A stretch of 64,000 bases of DNA, taken from the NCBI RefSeq assembly GCF_035497235.1, contig NZ_DATJEB010000052.1, forward strand, positions 21,260 through 85,259. The letters run 5' to 3'. Numbering within the stretch: the stretch's first letter is position 1; every line of letters begins with the position of its first letter. The notes under the pieces were generated by a model. It was not told where the DNA came from, did no database searches, and saw only the letters and a list, made by a program, of their open reading frames with translations. The translations under genes were made by a program, and so were the position numbers. This DNA is from Agriterribacter sp. GTDB lineage: Bacteria; Bacteroidota; Bacteroidia; Chitinophagales; Chitinophagaceae. Positions 40,467-62,458 of the stretch are shown piece by piece.

Positions 40467-41821
40467 TTATTTCGCTTCTTCAACATGCTTTTTAAACCTT
40501 TCTACACTCGTGCTGTTTTCTGCCAGAAAGGTTACGCCCTCTTTCTGCATAATTGTAAGTGCTTTATTGTATAAGCCTGACTCCCGGGCTTCTACAGGAT
40601 TGCGCATGCATTTTAAGTAATATACAGGTAATGCCGATAAGGCTACTCTTGATGAAATCTCCTGATTATCTGCAACTTTTCCAGCTTCATCAAACAGATA
40701 AAGCGCTTTGCTTACAAATTCATCTGTAAACATTATATCATTGGGTTTAATACCAATTTTCATATGTGTATCGGGTTTCACCAAACTCTGTGTTAAATCA
40801 AAATATTGCTTAACATATACGCCCGATCTTCCATAATATCCATATATAAAATCTGCTATCACCTTGTTTGTACTGGTATCAGGATTCCATAGTAGTTTAG
40901 CAATAAGATATGCTTTTAGCTCAGAGAACTCCCTACCACGGCTTTGATAGGCTGCCTGCTCCATAATACCAATACTTTTATTTTTTTTAAAAGTTTTAAT
41001 ATTGGGCTGCAATACCGCAAAGTTGGGATAGGGCATTACATAATGAGCAAAATTTACTACGTAATCCCATATGTATAATTGCGGAGAAATACTTGCCCAT
41101 GTTTTCATGTCATCCAAAAGGATTTATTGCGTTCACATGATTTTAAATCGTGCGCTACGCAAGCTTCAATAGGGCATAGCCTAACTACTACATTCTTCCT
41201 TGGCTTTATATTCCTGGGAGGGGTACGCGTATATCGATAAGCTAAGGTACCAATATATTTATCTGGAAAATCTTTTTATATTGCTTCTGCCACCTGGTTA
41301 ACAAACCATATCATGAGACCTGATTCTTCTCCTTCTTTTTTAACAATGGCCTGACATTTGTCGCACTCACAGGGATTGTAATAGTCATTTTGAGAAACAT
41401 CATATATCAGATGTTCTGGATAAACGCGAATCTTATCTTTGATACGCTTCGTAACAATTTTTAAAACATTTTTATTACTTAAACATAGCTGAGCTAATTC
41501 CTTTCTGTTATTTTTATTTACCTGGTGCACTCTTTTACCATTAATAAGACTATAGTATTCCGGATGTTTATCAAAAAATTCAGCAGGGGGCATTAATGGG
41601 TAAAAGGTATGCACAGCCCAAAACCCTTCAACGCCTCCGGGTTGTTGAACAAAATTCATTCTGCCGTTCATTTTGTTTCTTGCGGCCCAAGTTGGATCGA
41701 AAGCTTCAAAATAGAAATCATTTCTTACTTGTATTCCGGGAGCACTTTTATAATTATACTGACCAAAAATTAGTTTATTCTTTTTAGGTATTACTTTAAT
41801 CTGTGGCGCAAGTCTATATGT
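40467..41821 (-). pseudogene. Second DUF4838 paralogue, degraded
   Basis: APGIQVRNDFYFEAFDPTWAARNKMNG..VHTFYPL..QLCLSN..SQND..AEAI*KDFPDKYIGTLAY. In-frame TAA at 41276-41278, 1-nt loss in the run at 41116-41119 (KSF/LDDMK), and the N-terminal domain and signal peptide are missing. Confidence 0.88.
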
Positions 41822-41928: not shown

Positions 41929-44574
41929 CTACTTGAAAGCCTCATGTTTGGGATCGCCGCCGGATCGCAGGTACGCCATCAGGCTTCTCAATTCATCCGC
42001 ATTGAGTGAATTAATCAGTCCGGGTGGCATTTGCGAAACAGAAACCGGTTCGATAGATGCTACCTCGGAAGAGGGCACAATATCCGGCGCCCGGTTAGGA
42101 TCCCGGCTGTATACCTTAATGAAAGCTTCCTCTTTTACCAATAGTCCTTCCAGGCTACGACCGCTTTTCAATGTAACGCGGGAGCTTCCGTACAAATCAG
42201 CAATGGTTTCACTGGGATGAATAATATCTTCCAATATTTTTTGAATAGAAAAACGATTCCCCACAGCGCCCAGGTCTGGCCCTATATTACCTCCCAACCC
42301 ATCGAAACGATGGCAGGATGCACAACCTATGGCAAAGAAGGCATTGCGTCCCTGCTCAAAGCTTTTTGTTCCCGAAGGCTTATTCACCGCCTGCAAAGCA
42401 TTGTCCACTGTCCAGTTCTTTCCCGGGCCTTTCACCGGCTTTATTTCAAAGGGTGGTGCTTTTGCAATAGGCTTTGAAATAACATCACCCAGTGCAATAC
42501 GATCTGCTTCCGAAACGCCCAGTAATGCTTCGTTGCGCATACGCTCTAAAAATCCCCAATAGCTTTCACCACCCATAGCATCTGCTGCGTTATTGATCAT
42601 ACTGAAATAAGTTTTTCGCTGATCAATCGTCCAACCCTCTTTTAAATCTCTCAGCATGAACAGGTATTCGAGCTTATTCGCCGGGGGTGGATTATCAAGC
42701 ATTTGTTGAACAGTGCCACCATAACTGTTATTTCGCTTAACGGTTGTTCCCCAGTCGGGCGCTGGCGGGGTCTTACTGTTTCGTATCAAATCCAGTGCCG
42801 TTGCAATTATACGGGCGTCTTTCAGATAAATCAATACCCGTACTAACTCTACATTTACCCTTTCATCTTCATCGGGCAAAAACTTCACTAACCGGTCAGC
42901 GATTTTTTGACATATAGCCTGATCTGGTTTTCCCAGTCGCATAAAACTCAGTGATAATGCGCGCAGATAGCCCAGTTTTTTCAAATTATCCAGGCTGGTG
43001 AAGTCTAATTTTTCCAGGAGGGTTAAAGCATCATCCAGGTTAGTTGAATTTCCGGCGCGTGCCAATGCAACCGTGCTGGTAATAACAGCCTGAGGCCGTG
43101 CTTCAGCTTTTGCACGTGATATCCAGCCCGATACTGGTTGAAACTCAATGGCAACACGTGCTGCATTCCTGATAAACCGGTCTTCATCTGCAAGATAGGG
43201 CCAAGCCGCAGAAACCGCCCCGGCATCACGGCGCCCGTGGAACGCTTCGAGGCGGTGCCTGATCTTCCGGAACGCAAGTCCTTCCTGATCTTCCCTGTAT
43301 TGTACCGGCTCAGTAGACGCTTCACCGGTATAGGTTACACGGTATAATTTGGTGTCATTACTCCACCCGCCGGTAATAAAATACATCGCTCCGTCTTTTC
43401 CAATCACGGCATCAACAACAGCTAAAGGATGTCCCGATAAAAATTCTTCTGCCGTAGCAGTATAACTTGCTCCTTTCGGTTTCAGATGGAAAGCATAAAT
43501 AGTGCCGTAGGTCCAGTCTAAAGCAAACAATGCTTTCTGGTATTTTTCCGGGAACCGGGCTCCTGTTCCAAACAATACCCCGGTGGGGGAGGCTGGTCCT
43601 ACATCTAATAAAGAGGGATGGCTGTCTTCGTAAAAATCCTTCCATTTTCCGCTTCCGCTGCGCCAGCCGTAATCACTGCCGCTCACCACATGCAGGATCC
43701 TGGTAGGACGGTACCAGGGCATTCCCATGTCCCATTCCATATCCGAGTCAAAAGTAAACAGCTCTCCATTAGGATAAACAGCCATATCGTAGGTGTTACG
43801 ATAACCCACACTCAGGATATCCCAGTTGTGTGCATCGCCGTCTATCCGGGCAACATATCCACCGGGTGCTAAGATACCCATCGCATGACCTCTGGCATCC
43901 CACTGCCGGGTAAGTAAAATATCTTCTTTCCAATTGAGTACACGACTGGTATATTTTTCAGGCAGCGGGGTATGATTTCCATTCACTACAAAAAGGCCGC
44001 TGCCATCGGGTGTCGGCACTAAAGCATGGTTACCATGATCACTGGAACTTTGAGGCCCGCCCATAAATTTCATTTCATCTAAAATACCATCATTTTGGCT
44101 TGATGACATACGAAACAAACCACTTCCGTTTACATTAGCGTATAAACTTTTTTTAAACCAGGCAAGTCCCTGGGCGCCTGTAGCAGGCAGCACCATTTTG
44201 GAAACCTGCACTTTCGGTTTTCCGTCTTCGTTTTGCTGTACATCAATCCGGTACATTCCCTGCTGATATTCATCAGAAGCAACCATGCTACCCTGTTCAT
44301 CTATAGCCAGGCTAACCCAGGTTCCCTGTGACTTCCGGGGAACTTCATATAATAATTCCGCTTTAAAACCCGGTAAAATACGAAGATCACCGGATGGCGC
44401 CTCATTCAACTTATCCATAGCCAATTCCGTTGTCGAATTATCCTTTGTCTGGTTCTGCTCCTTATTCTGACTGCAGCTAAAAAGAAACACCACAAGAAAT
44501 ATTGTTGGTATTACAGAAGACCATCCGTTTTTTCTAAGAATGGAAAAGAATGTCTTTGCACTTGCGTATATCAT
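41929..44574 (-). CDS. PVC-type heme-binding lipoprotein: beta-propeller dehydrogenase-like domain + HEAT repeats + cytochrome c
   Basis: Lipobox LFS-C; PGFKAELLY; GYRNTYD; FTFDSDMEWD; GSDYGWR; HEAT repeats (DRFIRNAARVAIE); CASCH..GPDL..SQMPPGL. Confidence 0.88.
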   Translation of the reverse strand: MIYASAKTFFSILRKNGWSSVIPTIFLVVFLFSCSQNKEQNQTKDNSTTELAMDKLNEAPSGDLRILPGFKAELLYEVPRKSQGTWVSLAIDEQGSMVASDEYQQGMYRIDVQQNEDGKPKVQVSKMVLPATGAQGLAWFKKSLYANVNGSGLFRMSSSQNDGILDEMKFMGGPQSSSDHGNHALVPTPDGSGLFVVNGNHTPLPEKYTSRVLNWKEDILLTRQWDARGHAMGILAPGGYVARIDGDAHNWDILSVGYRNTYDMAVYPNGELFTFDSDMEWDMGMPWYRPTRILHVVSGSDYGWRSGSGKWKDFYEDSHPSLLDVGPASPTGVLFGTGARFPEKYQKALFALDWTYGTIYAFHLKPKGASYTATAEEFLSGHPLAVVDAVIGKDGAMYFITGGWSNDTKLYRVTYTGEASTEPVQYREDQEGLAFRKIRHRLEAFHGRRDAGAVSAAWPYLADEDRFIRNAARVAIEFQPVSGWISRAKAEARPQAVITSTVALARAGNSTNLDDALTLLEKLDFTSLDNLKKLGYLRALSLSFMRLGKPDQAICQKIADRLVKFLPDEDERVNVELVRVLIYLKDARIIATALDLIRNSKTPPAPDWGTTVKRNNSYGGTVQQMLDNPPPANKLEYLFMLRDLKEGWTIDQRKTYFSMINNAADAMGGESYWGFLERMRNEALLGVSEADRIALGDVISKPIAKAPPFEIKPVKGPGKNWTVDNALQAVNKPSGTKSFEQGRNAFFAIGCASCHRFDGLGGNIGPDLGAVGNRFSIQKILEDIIHPSETIADLYGSSRVTLKSGRSLEGLLVKEEAFIKVYSRDPNRAPDIVPSSEVASIEPVSVSQMPPGLINSLNADELRSLMAYLRSGGDPKHEAFK

Positions 44575-44672
44575 ATCATTTATTGATTATTCGGTTATAG
44601 TAATGCTGTTAAATATTGAACCTGTTTGCAAAATATAATGTTGCGGTAATCAATTGTATTCCTGTATTTGAG

Positions 44673-45386
44673 CTAAGGACTTAAATCTCTAAACCGGGCA
44701 TCTTTGAATTCTACTTTCATGGGTGGACCCTGGTGCAGTTGAAATCCAAACAATCCTTTCTTCATTCGATCCTTTGCTCTGTCTTCCACCATAGACACCA
44801 GGTGTCCGTTTAGTTTTTGAACAATCAGTGTGCCTTTTACAATCAGTTCATATTCATTCCATGCATTGTCTTTTACATATTCTTTGATGGATTGGTCTTT
44901 AGTAAAGAAGGGAAAAGAAAGTACACTATCTATTTCCGAAATGCGAACCATCTGTCCCTGTGCAGCCAATATCTTATGATGCCTGTTGATAAAATTTTCA
45001 TACACTATCCCGGTATAGGTATTTTGTCCGTCAATATCTGCCTGGTAGCCGAGCAAATTATCATAGCCATCGGGCCCCTGTTCACACCGGTAATAAATAC
45101 CGCTATTTCCTTTGGAAGAAATGCGAAAGGAGATGTTTAGGATGAAATCTTCTACTTCCCGGTTCCAGACCAGGAAAGCGCTTTGTTTGACCGGATTGTT
45201 TTGGGTAGTTTCACCTGTCAGTAAACCATTTTCCCAGCGCCAGTGATCCGGCGATCCCTTCCACTGGTTTTGGTATACTTCGCTGAAAATGTATTCGGCG
45301 TCAACACCTGACGGATCATTATCCTTCCGGTTACAAGCCCCCATTAAAAAAAGAAAACCTACAGATATAAGTAAAGTATGTTTCAT
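44673..45386 (-). CDS. DUF1080 (3-keto-disaccharide hydrolase family) lipoprotein
   Basis: ATG 45386, lipobox LMGA-C; WRWENG; NSGIYYR; GYQADID; WNEYEL; GLFGFQLHQG..VEFKD. Confidence 0.88.
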   Translation of the reverse strand: MKHTLLISVGFLFLMGACNRKDNDPSGVDAEYIFSEVYQNQWKGSPDHWRWENGLLTGETTQNNPVKQSAFLVWNREVEDFILNISFRISSKGNSGIYYRCEQGPDGYDNLLGYQADIDGQNTYTGIVYENFINRHHKILAAQGQMVRISEIDSVLSFPFFTKDQSIKEYVKDNAWNEYELIVKGTLIVQKLNGHLVSMVEDRAKDRMKKGLFGFQLHQGPPMKVEFKDARFRDLSP

Positions 45387-45626
45387 TTTAATTTGTTTGT
45401 CGCGGTTGCTGCCCGGCTTCAGCCCTCCATCATCCTTCCATTTATTTATGCATATAGTTACAGGTACTAAGCGTTTGCGTTTCGAAAGGCTTAGTAGCAT
45501 GGAGTGGAAAATAACTCATATATCTATCGGGTTAATCACTGCTCTTAGCGTTAGCGGAAAATGAATTTTTATTTATAAACATCCTTATAAGTGCCGGATT
45601 GATATTCGGAACGGCCATAATAAGAA

Positions 45627-47657: not shown

Positions 47658-50600
47658 TTAGAATGTCACTGTCAATCCAATATTGGTTGTTTTGTTTAAC
47701 GGATAAACCTGGCTGTTTACCCAAATAGAGCCTGGAGCATCATCCGGTGATTCAGGATCGAAATCCTTCATCTTTGTAAAAGTCAGGAAGTTGAGGGCGC
47801 TTACATAAACCCTTAAAGACTGTATGCCTATTTTTTCAGTGTACCCGGATGGCAGGCTATAGCCAATTTCAAAATTTTTCAGCCTTAAATAATCACTGCT
47901 TCTAACGAAGTAGGTATTATTAGGCTCTCCATCGGTCATCCAGTATGCACCACCCCGTTCCCATGCTCTTGGATTTTCAGCACTTGGATTGTCGGGTGTC
48001 CAGCGGTCTTTCACCAGGTTATACATAAAATTTCCTACGCCTGGACCTCCTGAAAAAGTTCTGTACGATCTTTCGGCGCCTGCTGCTCCCTGGAAAAGTA
48101 TGGTTGCATAAAAACGCTTATATTCCAAATCTATAGTAAACCCTCCGGTAAATGTTGGTATGGTGGTTTTGTTGCTTCTTACCCGATCCAGTCCATCAAT
48201 CTTTCCATCATCATTTACATCTTTAAATATAATATCGCCTGGCCGGGCGCCATTCCAATGAGGGTACTTATCTATTGCCGCCGCATCTATAAATACGCCT
48301 ATTGCCTGGTAATACAATCTTGCGTTCATCTGGTTGCCGGTAGATTTTTGATATTCAGGATTACCTGGCGTTTCATCCCAGAATTTAATATGATTTTTTG
48401 AATAAGCGCCATTAACAGATACCTGATAACTCAGATCGCCAGTGTTATCAAGGTATGAGACCTGAAACTCAAAGCCTTTATTAACCACTTTACCAATATT
48501 TTCCCGTGGCAGGTTCAGCCCCGCAGAGCCCGGCACAGAAGCATTTCTGTATGCCAGGATGTTTGTACGCAGGTTATTGAAATAATCAGCACTAATCGTT
48601 AATTTATTATTGAGCAGTTGGGCATCGAATCCAATATTAGATTGATTGGCTATTTCCCAGGTAACTCCTTCATTTGGAATACGCAATGCGCGCAGCGCCT
48701 GTTCTGAAACGCTTTCGTTAAATACATAGCTGCCATTGTAACCATAAGTTGTAAGGTATTGATAGGGGGCTATCCGGTCGTTACCTGTTTTTCCCCAGGA
48801 ACCCCGTATTTTCATTTCATTGATAAAAGAGATATTATCTTTCCAGAAATTTTCTTTAGAAATTCTATATCCTAAAGAAATACCTGGAAAAAATCCAAAT
48901 TGTTTACCAACCGGGTCGAAAATATAGGAGCCATCATACCTCCAAACAAATTCAGCGAGGTATTTTGAATCGTAGGCATAACTTACCCTTCCAAAATAAT
49001 TTAACCTGCGGACTACACTTGATGATCCGCCATTGTCTTTTAATGCATTACTTCCCAGGTCCAGTTCATCAAGAATCTCACTCGTATAAGATCTTCTGAA
49101 AGCCCAAAAGTTCATATTATCGCCAGCGATACGTTCTGTAGCAAAAAGCGCTTTAACATCATGTTTATTAAAAGTACGGTCATAATTGAGCAGCGCATTG
49201 AGGGTTATATTAGAGCTGTTATCCATCCACTGACGCAACCGGGGATCCGTATTTCCTTTTTTGGAAGGTAAAAGAAGCGGCTGGCCGCTGTCATCGTAAG
49301 TTTGTTTATCCCAGGTATATAAATAAATACCATGGCTTTCTGAATTGCTTAGCGCTCAGGAAATTCTTATCTACTGCGGCATTGGCCGTTAGGGATAACC
49401 CGCTTACCCAGGGAATTGTAACGAGGAGCTTCATGTTACTCTGCAAAACATAATTTCTTGGTTTGGTATATCCGGTTGCATCAGTAACCAACACTACCGG
49501 GTTGGCGCCATACTCAATATCCGGTCCGGGTAATCCATTAGGCCACCTTGCAGGCCAGGTAGGAAAAGACCTGTTCAAAGCCCAGAAAATATTTTGCGCC
49601 CCATCGGCGCTGCCACCGTTAGATCCGCCGCCCGGATAGTTCCTGTTTTCCTGGCGCCCCACTATATCAAAACTTAAACGGATGGCGTTACTTACCTTTG
49701 CATCTATATTACTTTGAAAATTAGTTTGGGAATAATTTACAGCGCTGTTGCGATAAATCCCATCCGTAAAATTGTTTCCTAAAGAAATAAAATATTTAAT
49801 TGCTTCCGCGCCTCCGGACAGTGTCAGGTTTCCATAACGTTGTGGTGAATTTTTCTTTATTGTTTCTTTAAACCAATCCGTGTTAGGATACAGCCAGGGA
49901 TCGGAACCATCCTTATATTTTTGAATGTCCTCTTCTGAATAGGGCAATGGGGCGGCAGGATGATAGGTAGCGGAAATTTCATTTTGTATTTGTGCGTAAA
50001 GTGGCGCATCCACCATCTTTGGCAAAACGGTTGGCGTATTCCATCCCTGGTTCAGGGAAAGTTGAAGAGTAGGCTTTCCCGATGCACCGCGCTTAGTGGT
50101 AACAAGAATAACGCCATTGGCAGTCTGTGCTCCATAAATTGCAGCAGACGCGTCTTTTAAGACGGTTACAGATTCAATGGTAGCAGGATCCAGCCTTTCC
50201 AAACTCCGGCCCGCAATACCATCAACTACAACAAGCGGGGAATTATCACCGAGTGTGTTCGCGCCGCGTATCCTTAACGTAGACCCATCATTACCGGGCT
50301 CGCCTGTTCTGGTGATAGCCACCAACCCCGGTAGCCGGCCTGCTAATGAATTTGAAAAATTACCTGCCGGTGATTTTGCAAGTTCACTGCCTTTAACAGA
50401 TGCTACCGATCCTGTTAGCGTTGCTTTTTTACGGGTTCCATATCCAACCACCACTACTTCATTCAACCCCGAATCTGCTATTTTTAATACAATATTGTTT
50501 AACTGGTTTCTTCCGTTTACCGGTATTTCTATGGTTTCGTATCCTACCATACTTATTTCCAGCACAGCTTTTGCATTCACAGCAATGGAAAAAGAACCAT

Positions 50601-51081
50601 CCGCTTCAGTAGTTACACCAGCGCTTTGACCTTTTACTTTTACAGAGGCTCCCTGCAGTGGCTCGCCGGCATCGTCTGTTACCCTGCCACGTACATCTAT
50701 CTGGTTAACAAGGTCTGCCTGGCTGGGGGAAATTACCACCATGTAATTGTTCAAAATTTTATAGGCCAGGGTATTACCCAGCACTTTCTGCATGATTTCC
50801 GGTATGGTGGCATCCGTTACATGAATATTTACTTTACCAATTTTTTTGATATCATGCTGCAGATAGAAAAAGCGGTAAGCGCTTGTTTTCTGGATATTCG
50901 CGAAAACCTTTGTCGCTTCAACCTGGTCTAAATTCAGTGAAAATTTCTCCTGGCTATATCCCTTAGCGGATAGTTGCAGCAAAGGAACAAGGAGGAACAA
51001 TGAAGTTATTTTCATAAACAGTAAAAACTTAAATACCTGGCGCAAAAAAATACCATGCAGCCTGTACCTGCTTTTTTTCAT
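47658..51081 (-). pseudogene. susC: SusC/RagA TonB-dependent transporter with N-terminal STN signalling domain, frameshifted
   Basis: STN, CarboxypepD-like and plug motifs (LKDASAAIYG..NGVILVTTKRG), C-terminal F. Halves 49306..51081 and 47658..49238 join by removing one TAAA of the tandem at 49320-49327, giving 3420 nt (1139 aa) reading KPWYLYTWDKQTYDD. Confidence 0.92.
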
Positions 51082-51094
51082 ATATTTGAATTGA

Positions 51095-51195
51095 AAAGTT
51101 AATAAAGGGGAATAAGCAGACTCTACAGTCTGGCTGATTCCGCTGTTCAATACATTAGCTTTTTTGGGGAAGAGCTTCAACCTCTTCCCTTCTTT
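51095..51195 (+). ncRNA. Candidate cis-antisense sRNA in the fecR-susC leader
   Basis: Plus-strand TATATTTG (-7 box) at 51081-51088 and an 8-bp hairpin GGGAAGAG-CTTCAAC-CTCTTCCC (51167-51189) followed by TTCTTT. No TTTG -33 box; boundaries inferred. Confidence 0.4.
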
Positions 51196-53516: not shown

Positions 53517-55544
53517 CTACCTTCCAATCACCGGAAACTGGGAAATCCGCAACCGGGTGGCGCCATAAGGTATTAAAATAATTTCTTCTTCTTCTTTTGC
53601 CGTCTCCAACTGGTAAGTGACGCTGTATGGAACAGGCCCCGTCATTTCATTGTACAATTGCCACGATGGAATGCGCCTGGCTTTGGTTTTTATGGAAACG
53701 GGCACACTGCCCGCATTCCAGGGAAAGTTTGCAATTGCTTTCTCTTTCTCAAACACATAATGTTCATCCAGCTTATTATCTGCTATGTCATTTAGTCCGT
53801 AATTCCATGGCGTGGTGGGCCGCACTTCAAAATAACTGTTTCCATAGGCTACCGGATCTTTGTCATTTTTAACCTCCTTCACTTCTTCACCGATTTTTAA
53901 TGCGTATACAATCGGCCCGCGTTCAATGGAAACCGAATTTTCATGCCAGGTGTTTTTAAAGATATGCATCGGCAGCGCTAATTCAACCCTGTCACCCGAT
54001 TTCCATTCACGGTTAATTTTAATAACCTGGTTTCCCACGGCTTCCTGCCAAATTTTATCATTGATCTTTATGACAGCTTTTTTGCACCATGCGGGTATAC
54101 GCAGGTGAAAAGGAAAAGTAACCGGTTTATTTTTGTTATCCACCTGTAAAGTAAATTTTACAGACTCCCCGAACGGGTAATCGGTTTCTTCATTGAATGA
54201 TATGGCTGTTCCTCCTGCAACAATGGCCTTTACTGAACTTGGTGAATAAATCAGCGCTGCAAGTCCTCCATCGGGCGTTGCATACCACAGGTTTTGGGTG
54301 AATTTTGGCCAGCCCTGGTGCATATTCGATGTACAGCAGGGATATCCCGTGAGCAAACCATAGCATACATCTGTTCCGCCATGGTTAACATCAAAATTAC
54401 GGATATGCCTTGTTATCATTACCTGGTTAGCCTGCTGAAAATACTGCCTGCTCATAAAATCATCCGATACCTGGGTGGGCAAAGCATTAAAGGCTATTTT
54501 CTCCAGGTGATCTGCATAACGCACCTCCCCGGTAATGCCGAGTATTTTTTCAAGACTGAACATCATTTCAACAGCAGAACATAATTCTGAGCCCTGTGTT
54601 GGATTATTTCCATGCAAAGCTTCGTCGCCGCCATAAAGTCCGTGTGCCATCCCGTTGTATTTCCGGATATCTTCAAAACCTTTCTCCGTTGCATCTAAGT
54701 ATTTTTGTTCAGGATGATGCTGGTAATAAATGATGGGCTCTTTTATTCCCTGGGCAAGGTTTACACAATGAATGCTTCCCGGATTGGAAAGCATATCGGT
54801 ATGTAAAAATGCATTTGTATAATCAAAGGTCTGCCTGTGAAGCAGATCGCCCAATTCAAGCAGAAATTTGTCGCCTGTTATATTATAAAGCCAGTAAACA
54901 ATCATTAAATTATCACCTCCCCGGTAACGTGCCCAAAAAGTCCAGTGATCAAGCGGTTTTTGGGGAAGTTCTTTCAATTGGTATTTAAAATAGTTCGTCA
55001 TGAGTGTAATCACTCTTTGATCATGAGTTGCACTATAATACTGCTTCAAAATTTTAAGCATTACCATTTTTGGCCACCAGTCACGGCTATTGTCTCTTTG
55101 AAGGCCCGGCTCAGCGCTATAGTCTTTAGCAGGCCCAAAATATCCATCTGGCTGCTGACTGTTTATAGCCCACTCAATCCAGGGCTTTGTTTTTGCGATC
55201 AGCGCCTTATCACCCAAAATATAGGCAAGCGGCAAAAGTCCGTCTATCCAGTATGGGCCGCGCTCCCATTGATCTCCGTCACCACCCAGCCAGCCATTCC
55301 TGTGGTTCATTACCAGCGGATAAAGGGTATCCAGGTTTCCTGTTGCGCCATTTTTTTGCCTGGTCAGCATCTCTTTTAACCATCCCTGCGGTTTAATGGC
55401 TCCCAATGCAAGTTCTGTATATGGGTTTTGCCGGAGTGGCGCACGGCTATGAGTATAATCTCCGGAACTATTTTTCTTGTTTAGCTGCCCAAAAGCATGA
55501 AGCATGAAACTTATAAAAAGAAATGGCAGTAATATTTTTTTCAT
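53517..55544 (-). CDS. GH127/GH146-like (beta-L-arabinofuranosidase-type cysteine glycosidase) secreted protein
   Basis: Signal peptide; WERGPYWIDG; HCVNLAQG; GGDEAL; ELCSAVE and YPCC (Glu/Cys zinc-ligand and Cys-nucleophile pattern of HypBA1-type enzymes); ETDYPF; LRIPAW; ERGPIVYAL. Confidence 0.88.
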   Translation of the reverse strand: MKKILLPFLFISFMLHAFGQLNKKNSSGDYTHSRAPLRQNPYTELALGAIKPQGWLKEMLTRQKNGATGNLDTLYPLVMNHRNGWLGGDGDQWERGPYWIDGLLPLAYILGDKALIAKTKPWIEWAINSQQPDGYFGPAKDYSAEPGLQRDNSRDWWPKMVMLKILKQYYSATHDQRVITLMTNYFKYQLKELPQKPLDHWTFWARYRGGDNLMIVYWLYNITGDKFLLELGDLLHRQTFDYTNAFLHTDMLSNPGSIHCVNLAQGIKEPIIYYQHHPEQKYLDATEKGFEDIRKYNGMAHGLYGGDEALHGNNPTQGSELCSAVEMMFSLEKILGITGEVRYADHLEKIAFNALPTQVSDDFMSRQYFQQANQVMITRHIRNFDVNHGGTDVCYGLLTGYPCCTSNMHQGWPKFTQNLWYATPDGGLAALIYSPSSVKAIVAGGTAISFNEETDYPFGESVKFTLQVDNKNKPVTFPFHLRIPAWCKKAVIKINDKIWQEAVGNQVIKINREWKSGDRVELALPMHIFKNTWHENSVSIERGPIVYALKIGEEVKEVKNDKDPVAYGNSYFEVRPTTPWNYGLNDIADNKLDEHYVFEKEKAIANFPWNAGSVPVSIKTKARRIPSWQLYNEMTGPVPYSVTYQLETAKEEEEIILIPYGATRLRISQFPVIGR

Positions 55545-55741
55545 ATGCTGTTTTAAAAGGCTTTAAATAATTAATTTGGGTTAGCATCTTAAACAATAAA
55601 AAATTAAGGTAACGATTTTATATCTACCTCCCTATTTGATGCGGGACGATAAGAAATATTTGACCTAAATATATGGACTCATTATTGCATTTGTCTTAAT
55701 TTCAAATAAAACATTCAGGTTAAACCACAAAACCATCGGCA

Positions 55742-56905
55742 ATGCATAGGCGTCAATTTATAAAACATAATTCGCTGACGGCACTGGGGCTGGCCTTCAG
55801 CCCTTTGCAGTTTGCCGGCGAAACAGGAGGCGGGGGCAACCTCCATTTTATTAGCCCCATTGACGGAGACATGCTGCATAAACATGATGGTATAGTAATG
55901 GGCGGAACATTACAAGCCCTGGTAAAAATTGCGGCGCCTGCCAACAGTTCTATTACCGTGAATGGTATACAGGCAAAAAAACGTAATGGAATTTTTACGG
56001 CTGAAATAGCTTTGGCTGATTTTAAAAATGTAATTGAACTGAGCGATAAAAAAACCGGAATACAAAAAAACATCACGGTATACTGGCTTAAAAACCTGGC
56101 AGATAATTACAGGCTTTCTATTGATGATGCGGTATGGTTTTTAAAAGACATCAACGCCAATACATCCACGTATAGTTCAATCTTCAACAACCCCTTTCTC
56201 GGATTTTTAAAAGAGGTACATGATGCGTATGACACTAAAGTGCATATCAATATCTTTTACGAAACCGATGGCTTCAACCTTTCTCAAATGACCGATCAGT
56301 TTAAAAATGAATGGCGGGCTAATGCCAGTTGGTTGCAGCTTAGCTTTCATGCAAAAGCGGAGTTTCCCGACAATCCTTATATACAAGCCGGTTATGACCA
56401 GGTAAAAACAGAATGCGATGCGGTAATCCAACAGATCAGGCGTTTTGCAGGAGATGAATTAACGGGACCAGTTACCACCCTGCATTGGGGCGAAGTGCCG
56501 GTTGAAGTATCCAGGGCACTGAGAGACGCGGGGTATACGGGACAACTATGCGACTTTAATGTAGACGATAATCTGTCTCCTTGTTCCTATTACTTAAATG
56601 TGGAGCAAAGAAGACATATTAATAAACGATTTTTATGGAGAGACAATAAAGAAGCGATTAGTTTTATAAAAAGCAGTATCATTATAGACACAAAAAAAAC
56701 AGAGCAGATTATTCCTTATTTAGATCAATATGAACAACAAGGCCGTAAACCACCTTATGCAGATTTACTGATACATGAACAATACTTTTATCCGGGTTAC
56801 CATAACTATCAACCCAATTACCGGCAAAAAGTATTAACCGCGGTAAAATGGGCGGTGGAAAAAGGATATACGCCTGCATTTTTAAAAGACTGTATATATG
56901 AATAA
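55742..56905 (+). CDS. Tat-type exported protein with polysaccharide-deacetylase-like barrel
   Basis: MHRRQFIK twin-arginine signal; RLSIDDAVW, LSFHA, TTLHWGE, LLIHEQYF resemble NodB-like metal motifs. Confidence 0.65.
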   Translation: MHRRQFIKHNSLTALGLAFSPLQFAGETGGGGNLHFISPIDGDMLHKHDGIVMGGTLQALVKIAAPANSSITVNGIQAKKRNGIFTAEIALADFKNVIELSDKKTGIQKNITVYWLKNLADNYRLSIDDAVWFLKDINANTSTYSSIFNNPFLGFLKEVHDAYDTKVHINIFYETDGFNLSQMTDQFKNEWRANASWLQLSFHAKAEFPDNPYIQAGYDQVKTECDAVIQQIRRFAGDELTGPVTTLHWGEVPVEVSRALRDAGYTGQLCDFNVDDNLSPCSYYLNVEQRRHINKRFLWRDNKEAISFIKSSIIIDTKKTEQIIPYLDQYEQQGRKPPYADLLIHEQYFYPGYHNYQPNYRQKVLTAVKWAVEKGYTPAFLKDCIYE

Positions 56906-59900
56906 TATCCCATTCACCTTAAACTATATAATCAAACGCATGATGGCGGCCTCCGGGGTTAGTGTCTTCGCTAACCCCATAATCACAAAATCTAAATGGA
57001 ATGCTTATACACCGGTAATATTAATTATCCTACTGGGAACAAGTAGCCTTTTCACTTCCTGCAAACAAAAACCGCCGGCAGTAACAGATGGGTTAAGGGT
57101 TCCGGAAGGATATACGATAGAACGGGTAGCGGGGCCAGACCTGCTCTCCTACCCCATGTTTGCCAGTTTTGATAACCAGGGCCGGCTTTTTGTAATCGAG
57201 TCGAGCGGAAAAACAACGTCTACTGAAGATGTATTAGAGAATCCAACTTTTCAAATCCGGCTTTTGGAAGATATGGATGACGATGGAGTTTTTGATAAGA
57301 GCATCGTATACGCAGATCATATTTCCTATCCAATGGGCGCCTATTTTTACCGGGGAAGCTTATATGTAGCCGCACCGCCCAACCTCATGCGCTTTACGGA
57401 TGCAGATGGAGATGGCATAGCCGAAAAGCGGGAAGCAGTATTGAGCGGATGGGTGCTGCATCATAATGCGGCCACGCTGAGCGGACCTTTTATGGGGCCC
57501 GATGGCTGGTTGTATTTAGCCGACGCCCGGCGCGGATTTAGCATTACAACAAAAGAAGGCGACTCCCTAACGGGAAAGGGCGCACGAATTTGGCGATGCC
57601 GGCCGGATGGAACGGGATTGGAATCTGTTTCGGGCGGAGGCTTCGACAACTCCGTAGAGATTGCTTTTATGCCTTCGGGCGAAACAATAGGAACAATGAC
57701 CTATTTCACCGATCCTAAAGACGGGTTTCGTGATGCCGTGATGCATTGGGTGGAAGGCGGCGTGTATCCCAAACCCAACAGCGTTATTGAAGAAGACCAC
57801 CTGAAGTTAACGGGTGAACTGATGCCTGTGATGACAAAGCTGGCGCGGATATCTCATGCGGGTATAATGCGCTATCGCGGATCGGCGTTTGGCGCCGCAT
57901 TCAAAGGCAATTTATTTACCGCCCAGTTTAATACGGGGCGAATTATGCGGCATATTATTACCCCGGAAGGCGCTACGTTTAAAACTGCAGACGAACCTTT
58001 TATGCAATCCGATAGTTTGGATATGCATCCAACGGATATACTGGAAGATGCGGATGGCAGTTTGCTGATGGTGAATACCGGCGGCTGGTTTATTGCGGGC
58101 TGCCCACTTTCTGTGGTGGCTAAAACCAACGTATTGGGTGGCATTTACCGCATTCGCAAAACGGGTGCGCCGGTTGTAAACGATCCCTGGGGAAGGAAAT
58201 TGAATTTTAAAGAGATGCCCGTACCTGATCTTGTTAAATATATGATGGATGATCGGCCTTTTGTTCGCGACAATGCTATAGAACAAATTGTTATAACCGG
58301 CGAACCCGCTGTTGATGCACTTAAAAATGCAATACCCACTATTAAAGATGAAGAACTGCGTGCGGCAGCAGTGTTTGCCCTTTCGCGCATAAACACCGCA
58401 TCCGCAAAAGAGGGCGTGCGTAAAGCATTGGATGATCAAAGCGTTATTGTACGTACCGCTGCAGCCCGCATGGCGGGTATAGCAAAAGACAAAGAGGCAC
58501 TGAATAAGTTAATGCAAATGGTGCGGCAAGATGAAGCCCCCGCCCGGCGGCAGGCCGCAACAGCGCTTGGCCAAATTGGCGATGAAAAGGCGGTAGCGGC
58601 ACTTATAAGCGCTTCCAAAAACCCTGATGGCCGTTTTGTAGAACATGCAATAATTTATTCGCTCATCACCCTGAAAAAAGTGGCACCCCTGACACTTGCA
58701 TTAAACAATAGCTCTGTTAATATGCGTAAGGCGGCATTGGTGGCGCTCGATCAGATGGACGGTTCACCACTGCAAAAAAATCAGTTAGCTGCTGCTCTGT
58801 CCGATGGAAATAAAACAATCCGTAATACAGGTATATGGGTTGCAATGCATCACCCTAACTGGAGCGACATTGTAACCAACTTCCTGCAAAAGCAATTAAA
58901 TACAGCGGCATTGCCGGAGGAAGAACGATCATCATTACGTGAGCTCATGGCAGCCTTCAGCGATGACAAGACGTTGCAAAAATTCATTGGAGCCCAGTTA
59001 TCAAGTTCAGCAACACCGGTTGAAAAGAAAATGTTTTTGATGGATGTAATTGGCCGCAGTGCGGTTCAAAACATTCCTTCTGCATGGATAAATCCATTGG
59101 GTAATCTATTAAAAGGCGATAATACAACACTCCGTTCCGCGGTATTAGATTTAATTGAATCGCATGGCATTAATACATTGAACAAAGAACTCAACCAAAT
59201 TATACAGGATACAAAGCCTCCCACTGCTTTCAGGCTTAAAGCTTTCAGTGCACGATTAAAGTCGGAGAAATTACTTTCCGATTCGGAATTTCAATTGCTG
59301 TTTCATTTCTTAGATAAAGATCAGGAATCGCCCGTCAGGCAATCTGCAGTGCGTTTGCTTGCCCAGTCTAATGTAAGCGACACGCAATTGCTATCCCTGG
59401 CAAAAGAACAAGTGGCGCAGGCGGATGTTTTTTTACTGCCTTCGCTTATTACTGCGTTTGAAAAAAGCAAAAGTGAAGAAGTAGGCAAGGCACTGATAAC
59501 AGCACTGCAATCTTCCACCAACGGGTTGGGCAGCCTGTCTGTAAAGGACATGCAAAAATTGTTTGACGCATACCCGTCATCCGTGCAGGCATTGGCCGAA
59601 CCCCTTATGAAAACACTGCAAGATCAGCAGGCGTCACGTTTATCGCAGTTGGAACAATTAGAGGCCTCGCTCAAAAGAGGCGATGTGGGAGAAGGGCGCA
59701 ATCTTTTCTTTGGCAAAGCCACCTGTTTCACCTGCCACTCTGTAGAAAAGAATGGGGGGCAGTTTGGGCCTGACCTGACAAATATCGGTGAAATCAGATC
59801 GCGGCACGATTTGCTGGAAGCCATTGTATACCCCAATGCCAGCTTTGCACGGGAGCATGAAACATCAAAAATAATAACCAAAACCAATACGTACACAGGC

Positions 59901-60116
59901 ATCATCACCGAACAATTGCCGGATGCCATCATAGTAGCAACCGGCCCCGGTTCCATCATGCGGGTACCGCGCAGCGAAATCAGTTCCATTGAACTGCAAA
60001 ATGTTTCTATGATGCCACCCGGATTAGACAAAATATTAGACAAACAGGAACTGGCTAACCTGATGGCCTACCTGGTTTCTTTACCTGACGGACTGGGACA
60101 AATAAAAAGTCACTAA
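56898..60116 (+). CDS. Second PVC-type heme-binding lipoprotein (beta-propeller + HEAT + cytochrome c)
   Basis: Lipobox LFTS-C; VPEGYTIERVAGPDLLSYPMFASFDNQGRLFV; GPDGWLY; GGFDNSVE; HPTDILEDADGSLL; HEAT repeats; CFTCH..GPDL..SMMPPGL. Exact start uncertain. Confidence 0.88.
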   Translation: MNNIPFTLNYIIKRMMAASGVSVFANPIITKSKWNAYTPVILIILLGTSSLFTSCKQKPPAVTDGLRVPEGYTIERVAGPDLLSYPMFASFDNQGRLFVIESSGKTTSTEDVLENPTFQIRLLEDMDDDGVFDKSIVYADHISYPMGAYFYRGSLYVAAPPNLMRFTDADGDGIAEKREAVLSGWVLHHNAATLSGPFMGPDGWLYLADARRGFSITTKEGDSLTGKGARIWRCRPDGTGLESVSGGGFDNSVEIAFMPSGETIGTMTYFTDPKDGFRDAVMHWVEGGVYPKPNSVIEEDHLKLTGELMPVMTKLARISHAGIMRYRGSAFGAAFKGNLFTAQFNTGRIMRHIITPEGATFKTADEPFMQSDSLDMHPTDILEDADGSLLMVNTGGWFIAGCPLSVVAKTNVLGGIYRIRKTGAPVVNDPWGRKLNFKEMPVPDLVKYMMDDRPFVRDNAIEQIVITGEPAVDALKNAIPTIKDEELRAAAVFALSRINTASAKEGVRKALDDQSVIVRTAAARMAGIAKDKEALNKLMQMVRQDEAPARRQAATALGQIGDEKAVAALISASKNPDGRFVEHAIIYSLITLKKVAPLTLALNNSSVNMRKAALVALDQMDGSPLQKNQLAAALSDGNKTIRNTGIWVAMHHPNWSDIVTNFLQKQLNTAALPEEERSSLRELMAAFSDDKTLQKFIGAQLSSSATPVEKKMFLMDVIGRSAVQNIPSAWINPLGNLLKGDNTTLRSAVLDLIESHGINTLNKELNQIIQDTKPPTAFRLKAFSARLKSEKLLSDSEFQLLFHFLDKDQESPVRQSAVRLLAQSNVSDTQLLSLAKEQVAQADVFLLPSLITAFEKSKSEEVGKALITALQSSTNGLGSLSVKDMQKLFDAYPSSVQALAEPLMKTLQDQQASRLSQLEQLEASLKRGDVGEGRNLFFGKATCFTCHSVEKNGGQFGPDLTNIGEIRSRHDLLEAIVYPNASFAREHETSKIITKTNTYTGIITEQLPDAIIVATGPGSIMRVPRSEISSIELQNVSMMPPGLDKILDKQELANLMAYLVSLPDGLGQIKSH

Positions 60117-60128
60117 ACTTTGAATACA

Positions 60129-60962
60129 ATGGAAAAAAGAATCCTTATTTTTCTGGCATTCCTTTCCTCCCTGACATTTATTGCAGAAGGCAGTTTTGCA
60201 CAAACCAATACAGCCTTATTAAGTGCCACAGACATAAAAACCAGCAAAACGATTGAGCTCTTCAATGGCAAAAATCTAAAAGGCTGGTACACTTTTATTA
60301 AAGGGCGGGGAAGAGGCAGCGATCCCCAAAAAGTATTTACGGTTAACGATAAGATGATTAGGGTATCGGGTGAGGAATGGGGTTGCATTACTACCAACAA
60401 AGAATATGAAAACTTCACGCTAACTGTTGAATTTAAATGGGGAACAAAAACATGGGAACCACGTGTAAAGAATGCAAGAGATAATGGTATACTGGTACAT
60501 TCTACCGGAATGGATGGCGGTTATGATGGTACCTGGATGCACGGAATTGAATGCCAGATTATAGAAGGCGGCACAGGCGACTTACTGGTGGTTGGCGATA
60601 AAACTGAAAACTTTGCTATTACCTGCCCGGTAGCAACTGAAAAACAGGGAGGCAGTTATCTTTTTCAGCCGGATGGCAAGCCTGTTACTATTCATGGCGG
60701 GCGCATTAACTGGTACGGCCGCGATGCTGACTGGGAGGATGTAATTGATTTTAGGGGAAAAAGCGATGTTGAAAAACCGGTGGGGGAATGGAACAGGATG
60801 GAAGTTGTTGCCAAAGGAAATGATATCTCTATATTTTTAAATGGCGTGCTGGTAAATCAGGCGATGCAGGTTAAACCCGCAAAAGGACGGATACAAATTC
60901 AATCCGAAGGCGCGGAAATGCTGATAAGACGGATCGAACTCACGCCAATAAGTACACAATAG
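60129..60962 (+). CDS. DUF1080 (3-keto-disaccharide hydrolase family) secreted protein
   Basis: Signal peptide; LFNGKNLKGW; YENFTLTVEFKWG; DNGILVHS; IECQI; GEWNRMEV; GRIQIQSEG. Confidence 0.9.
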   Translation: MEKRILIFLAFLSSLTFIAEGSFAQTNTALLSATDIKTSKTIELFNGKNLKGWYTFIKGRGRGSDPQKVFTVNDKMIRVSGEEWGCITTNKEYENFTLTVEFKWGTKTWEPRVKNARDNGILVHSTGMDGGYDGTWMHGIECQIIEGGTGDLLVVGDKTENFAITCPVATEKQGGSYLFQPDGKPVTIHGGRINWYGRDADWEDVIDFRGKSDVEKPVGEWNRMEVVAKGNDISIFLNGVLVNQAMQVKPAKGRIQIQSEGAEMLIRRIELTPISTQ

Positions 60963-61090
60963 CGGGGATAGCCTGCTAAAAAAAGTATCCCGCTAATACT
61001 GCGGTTACCGGACACGGTGAGTATAGAATCTGACATTATCTTACTTCAATGACCAGGAAAATGAAACTTAAAATCTGTAATAAAAAACAA

Positions 61091-62458
61091 ATGTTGCATA
61101 AGCTGCCGCTGAAACCGATTGTGCTTGGATTGTTTATTTTTTTTATTGGTGCAGGCGCAGCTTTTACCCAGCAAATACGCATTGGGATTTTTAATGCGAA
61201 TGTTACGCCACCAATCGGCAGCCCGGTGGCGTATGCTACAGCCCGATCCGTTATGGATTCGCTCAGCGCCAGGGGAATCGTTATTCTTTCGGATGAAAAG
61301 CCCATTGTATTATGCGCTGTAGACTGGATAGGTATTGGAAATGAAGGGCTGGAAGTATGGCGCCGGCGTTTGGCGGCAGCGGCTAATACCAGCATTGACC
61401 GGGTGTCGGTACACGCACTGCATCAGCACGATGGTATTCATTGCGATTTTACCATGGCAAGGATTATGGATGAATATGGTATGGGCGGCATCCGCTTTGA
61501 TACCGCATTTTTATACGCGGCTATTCAGCATGTATCCGATGCCGTTAGTATAGCTGTAAAAAATACACAGCCCGTTACGCATCTTGGTTTTGGACAGGCA
61601 AAGGTTGATAAGGTAGCTTCCAACCGCCGCATATTAGACGAAGACGGTAAGGTGAAAATTATTCGCTGGAGCGCCACTACCGATTCCGCCGCTATAGCCG
61701 CTCCGGAAGGGCTGATTGACCCCTGGTTGAAATGCGTGAGTTTTTGGAATAATGAAAATCCGTTAGCCGTAATGACCTATTATACTACACATCCTCAAAG
61801 TTATTATGGAGACGGTGATGTAACCTGCGAATTTATTGGCATAGCCCGTAATGCAAGAGAGAAAGAAACGGGGGGCATTCCACATATTCATTTTAACGGC
61901 GCCAGCGGTAATATTGCAGCCGGCAAATATAACGATGGCTCTAAAGCCATGCGACCAGCGCTGGCAAAACGGGTAGAAACAGCGATGACTGAAGCCTGGC
62001 ATCAAACTAAAAAAACAGCAATAAGCCAAAAAGATATGAGCTGGAAAAATACGGAGGTAAAACTTCCCCTTGGAAAAAACATATTGGAGGCGGAATTGAG
62101 AACCACCTTATCGGATGAAAAAAAATCAGCAGCGGAAAAAGTGGCGGCGGCAGAAAAATTAGCCTGGTACCAGCGGTCTGTAGCAGGCCAAAAAATAAAT
62201 ATATCCGCTCTGCGGTTAGGCAAGGTGTGGTTGCTGAATTTGCCGGGCGAACTGTTTGTAGAATATCAGTTAGCGGCCCAAAAAATAAAACCGGGTGCAC
62301 AGGTATGCACAGCTGCCTATGAAGATTACGGTCCAGGTTATATTGGTACTAAAATATCCTATACCCAGGGCGGTTACGAAACCAGTGGTATTGTTTCGGG
62401 TACGGCGCCCGAAGTTGAAAAGGTATTAATGAAAGCTATCAAAAAAGTGTTGAAATAA
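61091..62458 (+). CDS. Secreted neutral/alkaline-ceramidase-like (amidase-fold) hypothetical protein
   Basis: Signal peptide; GIFNANVTPPIG; LSARGIVIL..VLCAVDWIG; ALHQHDG; YTTHPQ; FNGASGNI; LPGELFVEYQL; GYIGT..GGYE. Confidence 0.7.
   Translation: MLHKLPLKPIVLGLFIFFIGAGAAFTQQIRIGIFNANVTPPIGSPVAYATARSVMDSLSARGIVILSDEKPIVLCAVDWIGIGNEGLEVWRRRLAAAANTSIDRVSVHALHQHDGIHCDFTMARIMDEYGMGGIRFDTAFLYAAIQHVSDAVSIAVKNTQPVTHLGFGQAKVDKVASNRRILDEDGKVKIIRWSATTDSAAIAAPEGLIDPWLKCVSFWNNENPLAVMTYYTTHPQSYYGDGDVTCEFIGIARNAREKETGGIPHIHFNGASGNIAAGKYNDGSKAMRPALAKRVETAMTEAWHQTKKTAISQKDMSWKNTEVKLPLGKNILEAELRTTLSDEKKSAAEKVAAAEKLAWYQRSVAGQKINISALRLGKVWLLNLPGELFVEYQLAAQKIKPGAQVCTAAYEDYGPGYIGTKISYTQGGYETSGIVSGTAPEVEKVLMKAIKKVLK

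Follow-up and report, generated by a model that had tools for sequence, protein, structure and literature searches.

The window analysed here is a 64,000-nucleotide (nt) stretch of the assembly GCF_035497235.1 from Agriterribacter sp., a soil bacterium of the Chitinophagaceae (contig NZ_DATJEB010000052.1, positions 21,260 to 85,259 of the forward strand), with positions counted from its first letter. It contains a cluster of four genes on the + strand, here termed g1 to g4, which, judging from domain content and gene neighbourhood, probably strips and oxidises amino sugars outside the cytoplasm. An earlier reading of the letters alone (the sequence-only reading) had described four tightly packed genes divergent from a GH127-like gene, and the open reading frame (ORF) listing of the window agrees, with g1 at 55742-56905 (387 aa), g2 at 56898-60116 (1072 aa), g3 at 60120-60962 (280 aa; likely start ATG 60129) and g4 at 61049-62458 (469 aa). 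The first two genes overlap by 8 nt (ATGAATAA), or are separated by 34 nt if ATG 56940 is the g2 start. The g2/g3 gap is 3 nt, or 12 nt with ATG 60129 as the g3 start, and g3 and g4 lie 86 nt apart. Upstream, a 197-nt spacer (55545-55741, the presumed promoter region as read from the sequence) separates g1 from the divergent gene for a GH127-like glycosidase (53517-55544, - strand), identified by its PF07944 and PF20736 matches.

Export signals were judged by reading the N-termini, not by a predictor. The g1 product begins with MHRRQFIK..., containing the twin-arginine (Tat) motif RRQFIK; the RR pair is kept in the family consensus, 6 of 30 homologues match the Pfam TAT_signal profile, and residues 1-31 are disordered in the AlphaFold2 (AF2) model. 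In g2, an N-terminal hydrophobic stretch ends in the lipobox-like sequence LFTSC. Sec-type signals were read in g3 (MEKRILIFLAFLSSLTFIAEGSFA/Q) and in g4, where a hydrophobic helix spans residues 21-39, and a natural g3::g4 fusion described below lacks precisely g4 residues 1-~40. Export signals are thus present on all four products, as had been claimed, and g1-g4 are supported as a real, exported and tightly linked gene set.

Pfam analysis of g2 revealed a DUF7133 β-propeller at residues 64-392 (PF23500, E 5e-42), HEAT repeats at ~440-640 (HEAT_2, E 5e-26) and a C-terminal cytochrome c domain at 928-1061 (Cytochrom_C, E 4e-9). The protein scores above the cut-offs of two NCBIfam families, TIGR02604 (154.6 bits, cut-off 122.2) and TIGR02603 (97.2 bits, cut-off 68.15). 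The haem-binding motif, read from the translation, is C943-F-T-C946-H947 (window 59724-59738, + strand), and the probable axial Met lies in SMMPPGL at residues 1037-1043. By its family matches, g2 is a lipoprotein-like, PVC-type haem-binding CxxCH protein of predicted dehydrogenase type, in agreement with the haem dehydrogenase named in the sequence-only reading. DUF7133 is mentioned in no paper that we found.

The adjoining g3 product matches DUF1080 over nearly the entire profile (PF06439, E 2.5e-31, 109.6 bits against a cut-off of 26.8, profile positions 2-186 of 187). This confirms the earlier DUF1080 assignment and places g3 in the 3-keto-glycoside lyase/hydratase family, from which its activity is predicted. 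The DUF1080 member BT2157 cleaves or removes 3-keto-trehalose (PMC8121099), and activity of the family on 3-keto-glycosides is known for BT2157 and AL2/BT2 only (PMC8121099; bioRxiv 10.1101/2024.03.25.586180). The statement that none of the four proteins has a known substrate therefore has to be amended for g3, whose family has characterised members.

The g4 product (61049-62458, + strand) is a predicted exported Zn-hydrolase with the catalytic fold of neutral ceramidases, as indicated by its AF2 model (pLDDT 86.3), Foldseek and hhalign. Foldseek searches against the PDB returned neutral ceramidases only (2zws, E 5.3e-23; 4wgk, E 8.6e-23; TMq 0.67), and hhalign of the g4 family with the PF04734 paralogues of this genome gave a probability of 99.9% (E 4e-34). 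Because the g4 sequence falls under the Pfam threshold, profile-profile or fold comparison is needed to see this relation: g4 itself matched no Pfam family at E <= 0.01, PF04734 being carried by some of its homologues only, and a sequence search against the PDB yielded only chance-level matches. With 469 aa, g4 is shorter than the ceramidases (630-690 aa; TMt ~0.5) and is missing their C-terminal Ig-like domain. The family comprises at least 8000 clusters at 90% identity.

Active-site residues of g4 were mapped in two steps, from the g4 family onto the PF04734 paralogues of this genome and from these onto PDB 2zws. The metal and catalytic residues so assigned are H125, H127, R193/R194, H248, E401, Y431 and Y443 (window 61421-62377, + strand). 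H125/H127 correspond to H97/H99 of 2zws (THTHS), H248 to H204 (VHST), Y431 to Y448 (YVTT) and Y443 to Y460 (YEGG), while E401, within PGE, occupies the invariant Glu column of the paralogue alignment and R193/R194 lie within NRR. The mapped His, His, Glu and Tyr fall on what we take to be the Zn ligand positions of neutral ceramidases. In human ceramidase, catalytic roles have been described for His, Arg and two Tyr (PMC6952831). The mapped residues are invariant or at least 90% conserved among 30 family members, and the metal site of g4 is considered intact because these Zn and catalytic residues are conserved. The ceramidase-like amidase fold with an intact metal site was thus correctly anticipated. 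The literature search found no paper linking ceramidase-like proteins to polysaccharide loci, and the Bacteroides ovatus deacetylase paper that it returned concerns an unrelated CE4 enzyme.

The AF2 model of g1 (55742-56905, + strand; pLDDT 86.5) comprises an Ig-like β-sandwich at residues ~35-115 and a β/α barrel at ~120-387, with approximately eight β/α units in the secondary structure. The barrel has no sequence relative in Pfam, NCBIfam or the PDB, where the search gave chance-level matches. Its family contains at least 1755 clusters at 50% identity, and many members consist of the barrel only and carry no signal. Invariant residues of the family include D128, D129, H168, H203, H248, D262, D301, H345 and E346, and E251 is conserved in ~90%. 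Family members occur fused to SMP-30/gluconolactonase, GDSL esterase, α/β hydrolase, BNR sialidase-like, GNAT and LamG domains and to a type IX secretion system (T9SS) tail (P0252, P0248, P0268, P0388, P0391, P0383, P0271 and P0375, the SMP-30/gluconolactonase domain being found in P0252 and P0248).

The sequence-only reading had envisaged two metal-dependent hydrolase folds flanking a redox pair, with g1 as a deacetylase-like protein. This picture is supported for g4 but not for g1. The CE4/NodB profile PF01522 was unmatched in an hmmscan of 30 g1-family members at E <= 10, no CE4 structure was present among the best 50 Foldseek matches, and hhalign of the g1 barrel against the CE4 proteins of this genome gave a probability of 0.3%. 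An invariant D128-D129 pair is present, but the HxxxH motif is absent, each invariant His standing alone in the sequence (H168, H203, H248 and H345). A xylose-isomerase-like lyase was likewise rejected, hhalign against 16 PF01261 proteins of this genome giving a probability of 2.2%. The reaction of g1 could be that of a glycosidase, a lyase/hydratase or a deacylase.

In a close relative, g3 and g4 are encoded as one protein of 709 aa, in which DUF1080 runs in frame into mature g4, the spacer and the g4 signal peptide having been lost. The fusion was seen on the DNA of a metagenome contig (L130, 1397-3526), and at least three fusion members of 709 aa occur on different contigs. A GH127-like orthologue, 90% identical, lies convergent 35 nt downstream of the fusion in L130 and is followed by a transketolase gene; the GH127-like gene therefore stays with the cluster, though its position differs.

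In the window, the 86-nt spacer between g3 and g4 (60963-61048, + strand) contains a modest hairpin without a U-tract (UAGCGGG...CCUGCUA at window 60960-60995, followed by an A-run, not a U-run), with a folding energy of -24.4 kcal/mol (z -2.35). The spacer is nearly identical in the closest genome, that of Agriterribacter humi, whose proteins are 95-97% identical and whose gene order is the same; so near a relative is uninformative here. Inside the cluster, neither a convincing promoter nor a convincing terminator emerged from consensus scans of the sigma-70 type, in which Bacteroidota promoters are not represented, and the counts from the sigma-70 promoter and terminator scan and from a TAnnTTTG search were not above chance expectation. 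No exact TAnnTTTG box is present in the 197-nt divergent spacer; TGCATTTG, with one mismatch to this consensus, lies ~45 nt upstream of the g1 ATG, and no function is implied for it.

Gene order was compared in 80 loci with g1 homologues, 536 genomes having been matched. The g1-g2-g3 order was found in 8 Agriterribacter-like loci, with g4 directly after it in five of the eight and behind an inserted GH20-DUF7133 block in two (L002 and L005). L002 has the order g1-g2-g3-GH20-DUF7133-(gap of the size of a high-potential iron-sulfur protein (HiPIP) gene)-g4, directly behind susC/susD, and L005 is likewise up to the contig end. Adjacent g1 and g4 genes were observed in L008-L010, the pair in L008 being flanked by Gfo/Idh/MocA genes, and near-adjacent ones in L024; in a Dyadobacter, g4 and g1 are divergent neighbours. 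The most frequent partner is another gene: directly downstream of g1 in 44 of the 80 loci lies a GH109-like Gfo/Idh/MocA gene with a Tat signal (PF21252, E 3e-40). The g1 homologue here belongs to a conserved EamA-DHDPS-SDR-GH20-g1-GH109-like cluster (L017-L080; e.g. L081 4986-12576, Runella), which is present in Runella, Dyadobacter, Spirosoma, Larkinella and related genomes, often behind susC/susD. These arrangements support g1 as a further, putative enzyme that as a rule accompanies periplasmic sugar dehydrogenases.

Outside the g1 context, g4 orthologues (>=60% identity) occur in DUF7133-HiPIP-g4-MR_MLE sets in 9 of 10 loci, with HiPIP matches above the Pfam threshold and, in Chitinophaga and a Dyadobacter, EamA-DHDPS-GH20-GH20 upstream. 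More distant g4 paralogues (~45% identity) are located after SusD or among DegT aminotransferases. The g4 family was present in 24 of 50 genomes with g1 and gave 0 matches in a random sample of 300 Bacteroidota genomes, a contrast that is confounded by taxonomy. The expected synteny in relatives is therefore seen for g1-g2-g3(-g4) in Agriterribacter-like loci: pairs of the cluster are conserved widely, and the full four-gene set is found in one genus-level clade only. The idea that the parts are tied together is borne out by this synteny and by the natural g3::g4 fusion. Elsewhere in the same genome lies another set, with genes for DUF7133 (716 aa), a HiPIP of 119 aa with a Tat signal, and g4 in this order (L106 6998-10702, contig C32:166998-170702), with intact dehydrogenase and HiPIP genes and a g4 copy that is 75% identical, stop-fragmented, truncated and without the HxH region.

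Across this genome, six of the ten ceramidase-like loci have one of the ~21 DUF7133 genes within 4 kb, against an expected fraction of 3.6% (binomial p 4e-7; 7e-6 with a tandem pair counted once). The paralogue clusters also contain DegT genes, xylose-isomerase-like barrels and a sialate-esterase-like gene. One of them (L127, C13:228001-242000) consists of a SASA esterase, two ceramidase-like and two DUF7133 genes, then a xylose-isomerase-like barrel; another (L128, C39:9001-21000) of a ceramidase-like gene, DUF7133, a gluconate-2-dehydrogenase small subunit, then a GMC oxidoreductase; and another (L129, C28:7001-19000) of a ceramidase-like gene, DegT, DUF7133, then a xylose-isomerase-like barrel.

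We give an even chance to g1-g4 being one functionally linked exported module, periplasmic or outer-surface, at the edge of a polysaccharide utilisation locus. The best reading, based on gene association, is a respiration-linked periplasmic module that would act on N-acyl amino-sugar glycosides. What is observed are the domains, the folds, the conservation of active-site residues, the linkage of the genes and the fusion; from these we infer its catalytic steps, substrates and step order as follows. The g2 propeller would oxidise a sugar hydroxyl, with electrons passing via its own cytochrome c to the aerobic respiratory chain. The DUF1080 protein g3 would then carry out elimination and hydration, opening or cleaving the keto-glycoside like its characterised relatives. 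Either before or after oxidation, the predicted zinc amidase g4 would remove the N-acyl group, probably N-acetyl, from the amino sugar; de-acylation followed by oxidative cleavage, the order put forward in the sequence-only reading, is plausible. The putative Tat-exported β/α-barrel enzyme g1 would work on the same sugar beside a dehydrogenase. Likely substrates would be N-acetylhexosamine-type residues released from the glycan targeted by the locus, because GH20, GH109-like and DegT genes recur, with GH20 inside or beside the cluster in relatives and DegT aminotransferases flanking distant g4 paralogues, and because this locus holds a GH123-like gene and DUF4838 genes.

Several observations weigh against this respiration-linked module. 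The complete four-gene order is limited to one genus-level, Agriterribacter-like clade, and across the 80 loci g1 is far commoner with the GH109-like gene, without g2, g3 and g4. The families of g2 and g3 are expanded in this genome (~21 DUF7133 and ~20 DUF1080 genes), and their adjacency is weakly enriched (3/19, p 0.03). A search for PqqC gave no match here, but none in the control genomes either, and so has no bearing on the question. In g4, Ala290 (GNIA) stands where ceramidases have the Arg-positioning Ser (GN(L)S / GDVS), and to our knowledge the characterised enzymes of this fold act on lipids only, not on sugars. The cluster itself is without a GH20 gene. The SusC-like gene of the window is split into two ORFs of 624 and 526 aa (47658-51180, - strand), the N-terminal one with CarboxypepD_reg and Plug domains and the C-terminal one without a Pfam match.

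Two further features of the window concern DUF4838. A full DUF4838 gene is located at 32322-34214, and a 216-aa ORF at 40467-41117 (- strand) covers the last third of DUF4838 only (profile 219-325) and looks truncated.

For g1, a tentative possibility, to which we give less than an even chance, is that it founds a new glycoside hydrolase family rather than being a deacylase, with the Ig-like domain, a TIM barrel, Glu251 on strand 4 and Glu346 on strand 7; g1 would then free the sugar that is subsequently processed by the dehydrogenase and g4. The best 50 Foldseek matches of full-length g1 comprise Ig-like domains and glycosidase-type proteins that combine such a domain with a barrel, including GH13 amylases, BF4189, GH123 and GH135 Sph3. 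The eight or so β/α units fit such a fold, the family is fused to typical CAZyme partners (GDSL esterases, LamG lectin, BNR sialidase-like domains and a T9SS tail), and g1 adjoins GH20 and GH109-like genes. However, the TM-scores of these matches are low (0.15-0.36) and partly driven by the Ig domain, the His-rich conserved set suggests a metal site, and E251 is conserved in just ~90%. A Tat signal, moreover, suggests export with a bound cofactor, and the many barrel-only members have no signal.

The dehydrogenase could also act differently. We regard it as unlikely that g2 and the DUF7133-HiPIP pairs oxidise a free sugar at C1 to the lactone, like soluble aldose dehydrogenases. In such a route g4 would be a lactonase, or would deacetylate an open-chain N-acetyl-hexosaminate, which resembles the ceramide head group, and the product, once imported, would be broken down by enzymes of the kinds encoded in relatives (DHDPS-type aldolase, MR_MLE and RidA). 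The pairing of g4 with a dehydrogenase and an electron carrier across distant paralogues is in line with it, as are MR_MLE directly after g4 and EamA-DHDPS upstream in Chitinophaga and Dyadobacter, the RidA, PALP and SDR genes nearby, the SMP-30/gluconolactonase fusions of the g1 family (P0252, P0248) and the sugar-dehydrogenase type of the g2 propeller (TIGR02604). The chemistry known for DUF1080 requires a 3-keto glycoside, however, so that C1 oxidation would leave this protein no role, although a relative has g3 fused to g4. The AP_endonuc_2 barrels beside DUF7133 genes suit a 3-keto route better, and the DegT neighbours of ceramidase-like paralogues point to a free amine, that is, to amide rather than lactone hydrolysis. 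The DUF1080 fusion and the DegT links thus fit the C1 route less well than they fit the respiration-linked module. Quite improbable, in our view, is that the four genes share no pathway and are independent accessory enzymes of a large glycan locus, acting on different linkages and packed by operon economy. Polysaccharide utilisation loci do typically mix unrelated enzymes, and the restriction of the full order to one clade, the residence of most g1 genes in another cluster and the strong expansion of the g2 and g3 families would all fit. Against mere packing stand the in-frame g3::g4 fusion, the recurrence of g1-g4, DUF7133-g4 and g1-dehydrogenase pairs across various lineages and genomic settings, the enrichment of ceramidase-like genes near DUF7133 genes (p 4e-7) and the genome-level co-occurrence of 24/50 against 0/300.

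Oxidative, non-hydrolytic cleavage of glycosides has been recognised only recently, so far for neutral sugars and with NAD-bound Gfo-type enzymes only. With its predicted activities, the cluster would be a variation on this theme that brings in two families without an assigned function, and together with the widespread pairs it suggests an aerobic form that feeds electrons into the respiratory chain. A zinc amidase, whose fold has so far been met in sphingolipid metabolism only, would extend oxidative cleavage to amino sugars. The large g1 and g4 families, both without assigned function, gain hypotheses and defined partners, which would help to annotate many glycan loci of soil and freshwater Bacteroidota. 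A more far-reaching and rather doubtful proposal is that the ceramidase-fold amidase, the DUF1080 lyase/hydratase and the haem-linked propeller form one physical unit for an undescribed, respiration-coupled, non-Koshland breakdown of N-acyl amino-sugar glycosides, and that g1 founds a new CAZyme family partnering periplasmic sugar dehydrogenases.

The propeller of g2 joined to its own cytochrome for electron export recalls the fungal AA12 pyrroloquinoline quinone (PQQ) pyranose dehydrogenases, which differ in being eukaryotic, in having a b-type cytochrome and in that PQQ has been shown as their cofactor. Within the window, a haem-propeller/DUF1080 pair at 41929-45500 has the same architecture as g2-g3, with 36% identity to g2 in the haem domain, to which the haem-binding motif of g2 aligns; it lies directly behind susC/susD without a g1 or g4 partner, and the two cytochrome proteins are distant paralogues. 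For g4, the neutral ceramidases (Pseudomonas aeruginosa 2ZWS/2ZXC, human ASAH2 4WGK; PF04734) share the fold of the catalytic domain and the metal-site and catalytic positions, whereas g4 has no C-terminal Ig-like domain, falls below the Pfam threshold and has Ala for the Arg-positioning Ser; its gene context is glycan and amino-sugar catabolism, in contrast to the sphingolipids of the ceramidases. The usual downstream neighbours of g1 are related to the GH109 NAD-dependent α-N-acetylgalactosaminidases and Tat-exported Gfo/Idh/MocA proteins, which act on N-acetylhexosamine (HexNAc) glycosides through transient oxidation. No GH109-like gene is present in this window, where g2-g3-g4 follow g1 instead.

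The closest comparison for the cluster as a whole is with the BT2156-BT2160 and AL1-AL3 systems of Bacteroides and Alistipes (PMC8121099; bioRxiv 10.1101/2024.03.25.586180), which, like g1-g4, are periplasmic and pair DUF1080 with a sugar dehydrogenase. As with BT2156-BT2160, the DUF1080 partner lies beside the dehydrogenase, g3 starting 3-12 nt after g2. Both are modular, with parts interchangeable across organisms, and in both a barrel enzyme adjoins the dehydrogenase. The dehydrogenase of BT2156-BT2160 is a Tat-exported Gfo/Idh/MocA protein with bound NAD, whereas a Pfam scan found no PF01408 (Gfo/Idh/MocA) gene in the g1-g4 cluster. In g1-g4 this place is taken by a DUF7133 propeller that carries a cytochrome c domain, which would make oxidation respiration-linked, not redox-neutral. 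The PF01261 TIM-barrel lyase of BT2156-BT2160 has no counterpart in the cluster, g1 showing no relation to it (hhalign 2.2%), and relative to both known systems g1-g4 add a ceramidase-fold amidase.

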